Assembly: GCF_035084215.1 (NCBI RefSeq)
Contig: NC_090337.1
Location: 19,592,001 to 19,656,000 of the forward strand
Direction of reading: 5' to 3'
Source: Heptranchias perlo
Lineage: Eukaryota
DNA: 64,000 nucleotides
Shown: positions 30,864 to 64,000 of the stretch, one piece after another
How positions within the stretch are numbered: the stretch's first letter is position 1
Layout: each line of letters begins with the position of its first letter
Position numbers and translations under genes: made by a program
The notes under the pieces: model-generated
Databases searched by the model: none
What the model saw: the letters and a program-made list of their open reading frames with translations, nothing else
What the model was told of the DNA's origin: nothing

Positions 30864-32706
30864 AATATCTCTGAGTGAGCAAGTGGTCTTCAGCTGGCTG
30901 AGAACTTGCAGCCAAAGTCTTTCCAGCCAGTCAAGTAGCATAGCTATATATAAAGGCTGAGAAAGGTTACTTTAAATTTCTTTTGTCCTGATGCTAGGTT
31001 GTTTTGTGCTCAAAAAGGTTGTCCAGCTATGATTTGCTGGTGTTTTATGTAAAGTATGATGTCTGGAATGTGAGGGGAAAGACATATTTATTTTTCTACC
31101 TGTGATGGTTGAGCAAAACATTGTTTATGTCCTCAATTCTTTTTTCACTTTAATACATGAGCAATGACATCAGAGGGCTACTATACACACATGCAAGGTG
31201 TCTATCAGATAAAGAGATTTCTGCTGATTTTTCTGATCTTGACACAACCTGATTTCTCTCCAAGGAGCAGAGTCAAACAGTTGCCAATCTAGAGAAATGT
31301 CTAACGTAAACAGCAGTTAGTCTGTATTTGACATCAGGATTTGTCTATTTAGACCACTTCCCCACAGGGGATAGTTGAACAATGGCCTTAAGGGGAAAGA
31401 CGAGATTAGCAGCTAAGTATGACAGATGTGGTCCACATCCCAGACTACCTGTGAGCAATGCCATGAGAAATCAGCTAGTATATATTATATATAAAAATAA
31501 CAGATCCATGGGAGTGATTTTAACACAACAATTTCATTTTAGGCTTTAGTCTGAAAGTTTATTATGCCATATGAAACTGCGGGTGCTACCTGGTAATTAG
31601 TCTCAGATATCATTATTTTCCAATTGAATGGTTGGTGACACCCTGTACTGGCGTCACTGAATAAAAACAACACTTTCTTAGAGTAGGGATGGAATTGTGC
31701 TCCATATGTGTGTCACTACCAACCCAAATAACACAGATAAAATGTAGCCCGGATAGAGGCAATGAGGTGAAACTCAACAAACTCCATCCATGTTCGAGGA
31801 AATGTTCCGACTTTTGTGTCTGGTTTCAATTGGCTCTTCACTGTTGTGTTTACAGCTTCTCCTGTTAGTTTTTACTGAGAACCATAATTAACAACGCTTT
31901 CAGCTGTCATAAGAAGGGGGGGGGGAACTCATGAAGATTAAAATAGGTTTTGATGTGGGTTGATGCATCACTACCAACACAGCATCCTTACTCAGTGAGC
32001 ATTACTGTTTCCCTAAAGAGTTGGAGCATCTCCAAACCCACTTCAAGCCCCACCTCCTACATGGTAAGAATCTGTCTGGAACCTACATTTCTTATATCTG
32101 AATAGAATCACTTTCCAAATGGAATTTTCAGATCACATCCCAGTGCCATCGCTTGCCAACAAATGGAGCATAGGATTGGTTTAAAAACAAAAAGAGTGAT
32201 GATTTGTGTCAAATGTCTCCACATAATTCTAGTTCTTAGTGAGTTGAGCTTCCGTCTTAAAGTGTTACATTTAGTTGAATGTTGTAATTAAATCTTCAGT
32301 GGAGAGAAGTGTAACAAGATAAGCTGGGCTTTCACTGCCCCCATCTGGAGTGTAGCAGGTCCACAAAGGAGCAGTGCATACTCTAGGTGGACGTTTGCAG
32401 TGCTGGCTGTCAATTGTACCTAGCTGGTGACGATTCTTTCTAATGGCTACAGTTGTCTACATTGCTGCGGTATGATGGAGGCCAGTGTGCAAACATGGGA
32501 AAGCCCCACTGTCACATTTCAAGTTTTTTAAACCATTTTTCCACAGAAAGGATTTGGAAATGATCTACATCTAAATGTTGTGTTTTAAGTTAAAGTGGGT
32601 TCACACAAATTTATAATTCTCTTTATATCCACAACCTGCAGCCTCTGAATCAAAGGAGAGTTTACGTGTTAAGGAGCTAGGCATTGAAGATGTGTTTATA
32701 CAACAA

Positions 32707-32772
32707 ATGTAAGGGATCTTACAACACCAGGTTATAGTCCAACAATTTTATTTTAAACATTTATATTAAACA
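32707..32772 (-). mobile_element. Truncated copy of hammerhead-bearing Penelope-like repeat family A (ribozyme part lost)
   Basis: Matches 62159-62210. 12-bp direct repeat TTTATACAACAA at 32695-32706 and 32773-32784. Confidence 0.85.
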
Positions 32773-53994: not shown

Positions 53995-55070
53995 TGTGAC
54001 CTAATAGAGGTCTTTAAAATTATCTGACGAAGGAGATAATCTCCGAAAGCTTGTGATTTTAAAATAAATTTGTTGGACTATAACCTGGTGTTGTAAGATT
54101 CCTTACATTTAAAATTATGAAGGGGTTTAATAGGGTAAGCGTAGAGAAGATTTTTCCACTTGTGGGGGAGACCAAAACTAGGGGTCATAAATATAAGATA
54201 ATCAATAATAAATCCAATAGGGAATTCAGGAGAAACTTCTTTACCCAGAGAGTGGTTAGAATGTGGAACTCGCCATCACAAGGAGTCATTGAGGCGAATA
54301 GCATAGATGCATTTAAGGAAGTTATGTTGAACTTTTATAAAACACTGGTTTGGCCACAGCTGGAGTATTGTGTCCAATTCTGGGCACTGCACTTTAGGAA
54401 GGATGTGAAGGTCTTAGAGAGGGTGCAGGAAAGATTTACTAGAATGGTTACAGTGATGAGGGACTTCAGTTATGTGGATGGACTGGAGAAGCTGGGGTTC
54501 TTCTCCTTAGAGCAGAGAAGGTTAAAAGGAGATTTGATAGAAGTGTTCAAAATCATGAAGGGTTTAGATAAAGTAAATAAAGTGAAACTGTTCCCATTGG
54601 CAGTAGGGTCAATAACCAAAGGACACAGACTTAAGGTGATTGGCAAAAGAACCAAAGGCGACATGAGGAAAACCTTTTTAACGCAGCGAGTGGTTATGAT
54701 CTGGAATGGGCTGCCTGAAAGGGTGGTGGAAGTAGATTCAATCATGGCTTTCAAAAAGGAATTGTATAAATACTTGAAGGGAAAAAAATTGCAGGGCTAT
54801 GGGGAAAGAGCTGAGGAATGGGACTAACTGGATTGCTCTTACAAAGAGCAGGCATGGGCTGGATGGGATGAATGGCCTCCTTCTGTGCTGTAACCATTCT
54901 ATGATTCTATGAAACTAGATAAACACATAAGGGAGAAAGGAATAGAAGGATATGCTGATAGGGTTAGATGAAGTAGGGTGAGAGGAGGCTCGAGTGGAGC
55001 CACAAACACAGGTACAGATCAGTTCGGCCGAATGGCCTGTTTCTGTGCTGTACATTCTATGTAATTCTAT
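53995..55070 (+). mobile_element. CR1 3' fragment interrupted by a second CR1 fragment (~54317-54911) and a ribozyme-bearing insert
   Basis: The 236-aa ORF is a chimera in which the C-terminal CR1 motifs (TRGH..FTQRVV) occur twice. Two separate 3' tails are present. Confidence 0.88.
54024..54107 (+). ncRNA. Minimal type I hammerhead motif in an 84-bp Penelope-like insert (family A)
   Basis: CTGACGA-A-GGAGA(TAA)TCTCC-GAAA-GCTT-GTGA. 11-bp target duplication TTTAAAATTAT at 54013-54023 and 54108-54118. Confidence 0.75.
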
Positions 55071-61940: not shown

Positions 61941-62209
61941 TTATATAATAGAAAAGGAAGTTATTCTTTTTCAAAAAAGCTCACATGTGGCATAGAGTAC
62001 AAAAACAAGGAAGTTACGCTAAACCTTTATAAAACACTGGTTAGGCCTCAGCTGGATGATGCCAGAGGACTGTAGGATTGCAAATGTTACACTCCTGTTC
62101 AAAAAAGGGGATAGTAGCCATGATGTGGAGATGCCGGTGATGGACTGGGGTGGACAAATGTAAGGAATCTTACAACACCAGGTTATAGTCCAACAATTTT
62201 ATTTTAAAA

Positions 62210-62246
62210 TCACAAGTTTTCGGAGATTATCTCCTTCATCAGGTGA
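62210..62246 (-). ncRNA. Hammerhead motif (family A) with a stem III substitution
   Basis: Minus strand reads TCAC-CTGATGA-A-GGAGA(TAA)TCTCC-GAAA-ACTT-GTGA. The AAGCTT palindrome is broken. Confidence 0.65.
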
Positions 62247-62518
62247 GTGAGGCAGAACAAGTTGAGAAGGCTGTTAAAGCATATGGGATTCTGGGCTTTA
62301 TTAATAGAGTCATAGAGTACAAAAGCAAAGAAATTATGCTAAACCTTTATAAAACACAGGTTAGGGCTCAGCTGGAGTATTGTGTTCAATTCTGGGCACC
62401 ACACTTTAGGAAGGATGTCAAGGACTTAGGGAGGGTGCAGAGGAGATTTACTGGAATGGTGCCAAGGATGAGGGACTTCAGTTATGTGGAGAGACTGGAG
62501 AACATAAGAACTCGTCAC

Positions 62519-62555
62519 TCACCTGATGAAGGAGATAATCTCCGAAAGCTTGTGA
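62519..62555 (+). ncRNA. Complete minimal type I hammerhead motif (family A)
   Basis: Stem I TCAC/GTGA, core CTGATGA, stem II GGAGA/TCTCC, GAAA, loopless palindromic stem III AAGCTT, predicted CUU cleavage triplet. Confidence 0.78.
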
Positions 62556-63605
62556 TTTTAAAATAAAATTGTTGGACTATAACCTGGTGTTGTAAGATTC
62601 CTTACAAAAAAGGGGAGAGGGATAAACCCGGCAATTACAGGCTGGTCAGCCTAACGTCGATGGTGGGGAAACTTTTAGAGACAATAATCCAGGTCAAAAT
62701 TAATTGGCACTTGGAAAAGTATGGGCTAATAAATTAAAGTTAGCATGGATTTGTTAAAGGAAAATTATGTTTGACTAACTTGATTGAGTTCTTTGATGAG
62801 GTAATGGAAAGGGTTGATGAGGGTAGTGTGGTTGATGTTATGTATATGGACTTTCAAAAGGCATTTGATAAAGTACCACATAATAGATTTGTTAGCAAAA
62901 TTAAAGCCCATGGGATAAAAGGGACTGTGGCAGTGTGGATACAAAATTGGCTAAAGCACAGAAAGCAGAGAGTAGTGGTGAATGGTTGTTTTTCAGACTG
63001 GAGGGAAGTTGTCTGCAGTGGTGTTCCCCAGCGGTCAGTACTAAGACCACAGCTCTTTTTGATATATGTTAATGACCTGGACTTGGGTATAGAGGGTATA
63101 ATTTCAAAGTTTGCAGATGACACGAAACTCAGAAATGTAGTAACCAATGTGGAGGATAGTTACAGACTTCAGGAGGACATAGACAGACTGTTGAAATGGG
63201 CAGACACATGGCAGATGAAATTTAATGAAGAGAAGTGTGAAGTGATACATTTTGGTAGGAAGAATGAGGAGTGGCAATATAAACAAAATGGTACAATTTT
63301 AAAGTGGGTGCAGGAGCAGAGAGACCTGGGGTGCACACACACAAATCTTTAAAGGAGGCAGAACAAGTTGAGAAGGCTGTTAAAGCATATGGGATTCTGG
63401 GCTTTATTAATAGAGTCATAGAGTACAAAAGCAAAGAAGTTATGCTAAACCTTTATAAAACACAGGTTAGGGCTCAGCTGGAGTATTGTGTTCAATTCTG
63501 GGCACCAAACTTTAGGAAGGATGTCAAGGACTTAGAGAGGGTTCAGAGGAGGTTTACTGGAATGGTGCCAAGGATGAGGGACTTTAGTTATGTGGAGAGA
63601 CTGGA

Positions 63606-64000
63606 GAACATAAGAACATAAGAACATAAGAAATAGGAGCAGGAGTAGGCCAATCGGCCCCTCGAGCCTGCTCAGCCATTCAATAAGATCATGGCTGATC
63701 TGATCCTAATCTCAAATCTAAATTCATGTCCGATTTCCTGCCTGCTCCCCGTAACCCCTAATTCCGTTTACTTCTAGAAAATTGTCTATTTCTGTTTTAA
63801 ATTTATTTAATGATGTAGCTTCCACAGCTTCCTGGGGCAGCAAATTCCACAGACCTACTACCCTCTGAGTGAAGAAGTTTCTCCTCATCTCAGTTTTGAA
63901 AGAGCAGCCCCTTATTCTAAGATTATGCCCCCTAGTTCTAGTTTCACCCATCCTTGGGAACATCCTTACCGCATCCACCCGATCAAGCCCCTTCATAATC
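63606..64000 (-). mobile_element. CR1 3' end running off the window edge
   Basis: MKGLDRVD..GETRTRGHNLRI..FFTQRVVGLWN, with an (ACATAAGA)n tail at 63606-63630. Confidence 0.92.

Follow-up and report, generated by a model that had tools for sequence, protein, structure and literature searches.

The window analyzed here, a 64,000-nucleotide stretch of Heptranchias perlo DNA, ends in CR1 retrotransposon sequence, and one of the CR1 copies is interrupted by a 493-bp insert. Sequence comparison at the locus revealed that the insert is bracketed by a 12-bp direct repeat, the target-site duplication (TSD; left copy 62100-62111, right copy 62605-62616, plus strand). The host CR1 lies on the plus strand to the left (62057-62111, start approximate) and to the right (62617-63606) of the insertion. 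It resumes ~1 kb past the window end, after a second CR1 of ~1 kb that is 5'-truncated, runs in the opposite orientation (63607-64000 within the window, minus strand) and extends to ~64622. From left to right, the insert consists of a 139-bp minus-strand arm corresponding to the 3' part of a Penelope-like element (PLE) pLTR (62112-62250), 263 bp of captured local DNA (62249-62511, plus strand), three extra bases (62512-62514, plus strand), and a 92-bp plus-strand PLE arm (62515-62606). Each arm overlaps the TSD by 2 nt, the long arm and the captured copy meet at a 2-nt microhomology, and the arms are inverted copies of each other over 92 nt with one mismatch. A minimal hammerhead motif is present in both, on the minus strand in the long arm (62210-62246) and on the plus strand in the short arm (62519-62555), where the predicted cut falls after 62551. 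The coordinates given in the initial annotation all hold, as does its description of inverted hammerhead-bearing arms enclosing copied neighboring DNA inside a CR1.

The captured piece is a direct copy of positions 63355-63617 (plus strand), located 0.74 kb downstream, to which it is identical at 257 of 263 positions with six substitutions. This donor segment contains the junction between the host CR1 and the second CR1 (63606/63607). When 62249-62511 was aligned to the whole 3.25-Gb assembly and the best 40 of 7022 candidates were scored, the top non-self match was the donor, at 98% over positions 1-263, as the initial annotation had predicted. The 38 other scored places reached 92-94% and ended at position 253-254 of the piece, before the CR1/CR1 junction. 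In a column-by-column comparison with 14 further CR1 copies, donor and copy depart jointly from the majority base at 10 positions, and at six of these their variant is absent from all 14. Both inner composite junctions were found at this locus only among the scored matches, so that the spacer with its junctions does not recur at unlinked loci as a pre-formed composite would, a possibility that had been raised at the outset. The best genome match, the locus-specific junction, the six private variants and the single-copy composite junctions all support the earlier claim of a copy made from this locus.

Two other origins of the spacer were considered and rejected. A CR1 master copy does not account for it, because the spacer carries the private variants of the host copy, nor does 3' transduction of the second CR1, only 11 nt of whose tail are present. 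The second CR1 inserted independently, over 1 kb on the minus strand, and the host CR1 continues beyond it. The copy includes variants private to the host CR1 as well as its boundary with the second CR1, and therefore postdates both the ageing of the host CR1 in place and the arrival of the second one. Polarization of the six donor/copy differences assigned four derived changes to the donor and two to the copy, and no signature of error-prone copying was seen in the captured sequence. A single event, as originally suggested, is the simplest reading of one TSD and of arm and spacer divergences that each amount to ~1% per copy.

An assembly artefact would be favored by the repeat-rich surroundings and by the finding that none of the 16 pieces listed, out of 20,402 run-contig pieces, spans the whole insert. 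Contigs from public runs do, however, hold both inner junctions at about single-copy depth: X1 contigs cover 62223-62278 at a depth of 44 and 62482-62541 at 54.5 (32.2 for the unique flank), and an X3 contig covers 62223-62280 at 16.4 (14 for the unique flank), all without mismatch, although the runs are probably from the assembled sample and so non-independent, and the junction pieces extend 27-30 letters per side, below the 31-letter bridging rule. A joint between 62099 and 62605, with a single 12-mer and the site uninterrupted, also occurs in the run contigs, and its source is other CR1 copies. In runs of the next-closest organism, the unique flank had no coverage and no orthologous empty site was recovered. 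Together with the six donor/copy differences, the 12-bp TSD and four like cases elsewhere, these data leave an artefact scarcely credible.

The repeat family to which the arms belong proved to be the 3' portion of a PLE pLTR, including its hammerhead, in line with the initial assignment. The parent element is represented by a 3.05-kb tandem unit with direct repeats (L043), which has an RT domain (PF00078, E 3.7e-10) and the organization of a single RT ORF between partially tandem pLTRs, the ORF of this copy being split across two frames. Its C-terminal translation contains a GIY-YIG-like motif pair by eye, and no Pfam GIY-YIG match was obtained at E up to 1. The long arm is 98.5% identical to the pLTR of this element. 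Just 5' of the hammerhead, the L043 pLTR has a TATA-like box and, ~25-30 nt farther downstream, an initiator-like stretch, a candidate transcription start at which inner arm ends cluster. At least three pLTR subtypes were distinguished (L030, L062 and the blocks described below), in which the upstream sequence and helix II differ and the 3' arm and insertion layout are common.

To place the focal insertion among others of its family, we analyzed 1.283 Mb of contiguous blocks, made up of 283 kb around the window and five 200-kb blocks at arbitrary places. These blocks hold 39 insertions with 64 arms, and the layout known from endonuclease-bearing (EN+) PLEs, an inverted 5'-truncated copy with an optional tail and a TSD, is present at insertions of the family. 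The outer ends of the arms are bimodal and ~40 nt apart, with 33 of the 64 between -45 and -30 and the other 31 between -10 and +9 relative to the ATG. Every two-armed insertion (24/24) pairs one long with one short arm, mostly within TSDs of 8-18 bp. The PLE protein of an anole cuts both strands, extends each of them and begins reverse transcription at two neighboring internal positions, between which the "tail" lies (PMC11167929); the pairing of one long with one short arm fits two such start sites. In the focal insertion, the long arm has its outer end ~11 nt inside the ORF, at the distal RT start site, and the short arm ~38 nt before the ATG, at the proximal one. Both have the same inner end. 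Of 23 arms of the focal subtype (A-type), 12 have their inner end between -6 and +1 relative to the ribozyme core and on the downstream side of the TATA-like box, positions that are resolved only as far as alignment to one natural copy allows. This clustering would be explained by run-off at the RNA 5' end.

A genome-wide search for inverted arm pairs, which the initial annotation had suggested, recovered 726 exact head-to-head pairs with gaps of up to 30 nt, compared with 0 in the control. Inverted hammerhead-bearing arms are a routine product of this PLE family. Of 61 other matches, 20 have the triplet of 62512-62514 before the arm as well, mostly where an inverted partner adjoins; the three bases are possibly a remnant of cDNA self-priming, or may be a chance match (1 in 64). 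The window contains two further insertions, a single short arm inside a CR1 with an 11-bp TSD (54024-54110) and a 55-bp arm with 15 nt of filler and a 12-bp TSD (32703-32772).

We then considered whether the hammerhead motifs have any part in the structure, as the initial annotation had proposed a ribozyme-flanked cassette that could duplicate host sequence. Both motifs have the hammerhead core, helices I and II, an extra base before helix II and a G-C closing pair, scored by the features of minimal PLE hammerheads in the available text of Cervera and De la Pena (PMC4209133). The 4-nt helix III palindrome is present in the right arm and lost in the left, where a G-to-A change at 62217 breaks it. 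A search of the window at the Rfam gathering threshold gave 0 matches, as expected for a minimal motif. The same text describes published minimal motifs as cleaving weakly, and only as dimers. Ribozyme cleavage was rejected as the cause of the junctions, the inner ends being 37 nt from the predicted cut.

A mobile cassette, in which the pLTRs act in cis and move the host DNA that they enclose, has a precedent in Adineta, for which the available text of PMC3846280 describes TSD-flanked unrelated DNA between pLTRs and a gene with introns that was moved in trans. Here, however, the ribozymes lie on opposite strands, one of them mutated, and read-through RNA is predicted to fold the arms into one long hairpin, in which both motifs would be buried over 92 bp and could not release the spacer. 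The composite junctions are single-copy among the scored matches, where no second copy of the cassette and no sign of further mobilization were found. Likewise, neither a unit at unlinked loci nor ribozymes in tandem on one strand, as in a retrozyme or non-autonomous cassette, was observed. The arms also end at RT start sites and would thus, by inference from PMC11167929, be missing the RNA farther downstream on which the anole protein depends. The cassette interpretation is therefore very improbable, and the ribozymes look incidental. With no sign of function, the locus is most likely a dead scar within the host CR1.

Capture of nearby DNA between inverted arms is seen again elsewhere in the genome, a check that the initial annotation had proposed. 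Four of the 38 other insertions in the blocks contain 71-203 bp copied from 0.25-1.0 kb away, from both sides and in both orientations: 203 bp from +252 (C13:19578461, inverted, 99%), 102 bp from -1008 (C9:40070452, direct, 100%), 71 bp from -823 (C9:40166088, inverted, 100%) and 78 bp from +723 (C9:40136383, inverted, 98.7%). In each, the local donor is the best match within the blocks. The focal layout of two inverted hammerhead arms, a TSD and a local filler is exact in two of the four. In a third (C13:19577839-19578760, L116), a long arm and a ~10-nt second arm flank a filler that runs from element through inverted local DNA to element, with a 7-nt microhomology, and one of the four is single-armed with no clear TSD. 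All four belong to sister pLTR subtypes and none to the focal subtype. Junction microhomologies in these captures measure 1-7 nt, and TSDs of 12-15 bp are intact in four of the five captures, the focal one included. As in templated insertions, the focal donor is local and older than the insertion, and the junctions have short microhomology or a few extra bases.

The capture rate in the blocks is 10.5% (4/38; 95% CI 3-25%), small numbers that leave it uncertain. No capture was seen among 35 independent, fully contained young insertions from genome searches, a set selected by best score and mostly with just 1.5 kb of flank, and pooling gives 5.5% (4/73; 1.5-13%). It should be noted that 15 short-gap head-to-head pair loci are left out of these counts because they were chosen for their short gaps.

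Local duplications also arise where no PLE is involved. The blocks were compared with themselves (at least 45 bp, at least 95% identity, 60-6000 bp apart), and 19 tandem arrays were dropped from the resulting 33 rows. PLE insertion sites are strongly enriched among the 14 non-tandem local duplications that remained, five of which adjoin PLE arms although PLE edges amount to 0.24% of bases; nine do not. One of these nine probably represents two LINE copies, and three were shown to be clean insertions into CR1 copies, of 74 bp (C1:30038843), 252 bp (C9:40073830) and 849 bp (C20:30021345), from donors 0.4-2.2 kb away. No PLE piece was found in 150 bp of flank beside these three, which indicates that the host makes such patches without a PLE. 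A separate 82-bp inverted duplication lies ~12 kb right of the window end (L042:2637-2718 and L042:3854-3935, 100% identity, 1.1 kb apart), with no PLE arm adjoining.

Based on these observations, our current hypothesis, to which we give a probability of roughly 60%, is that the locus records one two-ended PLE insertion in which two cDNA stubs were joined by host break-repair synthesis that copied 263 bases from 0.74 kb downstream. The insertion has a TSD, arms in opposite orientation at the two outer ends used by the family, a common inner end 5' of the hammerhead, and a local donor; the nicking, run-off and resection, and the identity of the polymerase, are what we infer. The element endonuclease would nick both strands 12 bp apart, and each 3' end would prime reverse transcription, one per internal start site, with each cDNA ending by run-off where the RNA begins, shortly before the ribozyme. 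This would leave two cDNA ends without homology. One of them, probably that of the long arm by way of the 2-nt match, would pair with exposed right-flank DNA, be extended by 263 nt, be released and be joined to the other cDNA, followed by fill-in and ligation. The product would be a dead scar, with the ribozymes carried along because the first 40 nt of the RNA that is copied contain them.

The initial annotation was thus supported in the PLE identity, the local copying and, as the simplest reading, the single event, and its cassette was not the only part left without support. It had a single polymerase switch away from the element template and back, which does not agree with arms that are opposite in orientation and start at two RT sites. 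The arms are best read as two cDNAs, one per nicked strand, joined through the copy.

Alternatively, the PLE reverse transcriptase itself may have jumped from the element RNA to local DNA or nascent local RNA, copied the 263 nt and been joined to the second cDNA, in which case the capture would require no polymerase of the host. PLE RT initiates internally without homology and could make such a jump (PMC11167929), which also counts against host repair. Element-to-element jumps and self-primed fillers are frequent at inner junctions of the family, and the capture that runs from element to local DNA to element, like the intact TSDs, speaks for this alternative. The intact TSDs argue for protected 3' ends, and host repair has to assume long resection. 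For templated genomic insertions at L1, the choice between ORF2p and the host is left open in the available text of PMC11702581. On the other hand, local duplications of the same size and distance arise without any PLE arm, which we take to favor host repair synthesis over an RT jump, and the donors begin at internal sites instead of template ends, with both flanks and both orientations used. Internal chromosomal donors on both sides and in both orientations fit what resected ends would allow, although the strand and side of a donor cannot separate DNA from RNA templates, since two cDNAs permit all four layouts. We regard a jump by the PLE enzyme as the less probable alternative, though one to be taken seriously. 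The same tentative standing applies to its general form, that PLEs insert by obligate double priming at two RT start sites and that their own RT, on reaching the end of the element RNA, routinely jumps to a chromosomal DNA or nascent RNA template within 1 kb of the target. If this were true, 1 in 10-20 insertions would duplicate host sequence, a built-in source of local duplications in this vertebrate germline that would amount to thousands of events.

A history in two steps is also conceivable, in which a head-to-head stub pair inserted first and the palindrome later broke at its centre and was patched with local DNA. Palindromes are fragile, hundreds of near-perfect palindromic pairs exist in the genome, and so do templated insertions made by the host. 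Yet both arms retain the inner end typical of the family with nothing lost, one of the other captures is single-armed, and another sits in an asymmetric insertion without a palindrome centre. The divergence between the arms (1/92) and between copy and donor (6/263), small counts in both cases, gives no sign of two ages. Two separate steps therefore appear unlikely, and a single insertion closed by host repair synthesis remains our preferred explanation.

Much of the structure is familiar from other PLEs. The canonical EN+ PLE insertion comprises an inverted 5'-truncated copy, a tail and a TSD, and in Schistosoma dual hammerhead motifs occur on opposite strands 100-700 bp apart, according to the available text of PMC8557442, PMC3846280 and PMC4209133. 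The family described here conforms in having pLTR arms that stand head-to-head, one of them optionally with a tail of 30-50 nt, a TSD of 9-17 bp and a minimal hammerhead. It departs from that pattern in the non-element DNA of proven local origin between the arms, a local donor not being described in the text of those sources available to us. Solo pLTRs of Adineta vaga likewise enclose unrelated sequence within a TSD; there, the accessible part of PMC3846280 proposes mobilization in trans by cis-acting pLTRs, in contrast to a donor within 1 kb and capture at insertion.

Related joining events are known from other retrotransposons and from host repair. Twin priming and templated insertion at L1 resemble the present case in having two primed ends, microhomology at the inversion junction and a local genomic segment of under ~250 bp copied into the insertion, for which an SDSA-like model is proposed (bioRxiv 10.1101/2024.08.27.596794; PMC11702581; both as far as the available text goes). 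The former source, in the same portion, reports 22 cases among ~3,598 somatic insertions, typically within 15 bp, a count for which its authors state that no specific search was made. The captures at PLEs differ in being germline, 0.25-1.0 kb away and found in 4 of 73 insertions. The "snap-back" 5' junctions of R2 in PRINT are similar in that the cDNA 3' end primes extra DNA-templated synthesis before joining, on cDNA or, less often, on nearby chromosomal DNA (rDNA), and different in that PRINT is one-ended, site-specific and engineered (PMC11371274, available text). End joining mediated by polymerase theta, as outlined in the accessible part of PMC10923293, also proceeds by short microhomology, extension, release and re-annealing and yields flank-templated inserts. 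Those inserts often come from the immediate flank, unlike the 71-263 bp copied here from up to 1 kb. Since the captures are long and distant for Pol theta, copying by an SDSA- or MMBIR-like route is equally plausible.

According to the available text of PMC8557442, it is unsettled by what steps a PLE insertion is closed and its inverted arms are formed. Hundreds of short, clean insertions in this genome preserve a record of these steps: the use of two RT start sites, one for each strand, then run-off close to the hammerhead, and finally joining. The joining step sometimes copies DNA from up to 1 kb away, which makes the choice between host repair and RT testable. PLE breaks are also a concentrated source of 70-260-bp local duplications, 5 of the 14 found being confined to 0.24% of the bases sampled. 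The inverted arms, the tail and the TSD were already known for PLEs. Our literature search, whose scope was limited to sources other than older subscription PLE papers and supplements, found no description of kilobase-range local capture at PLE junctions.

A further irregularity is found at the 5' end of the host CR1, to which an extra CR1 piece is fused (61991-62056). This piece is 92% identical to 63417-63482 and is without continuation past the host CR1 tail, and it possibly reflects an internal jump during CR1 insertion.
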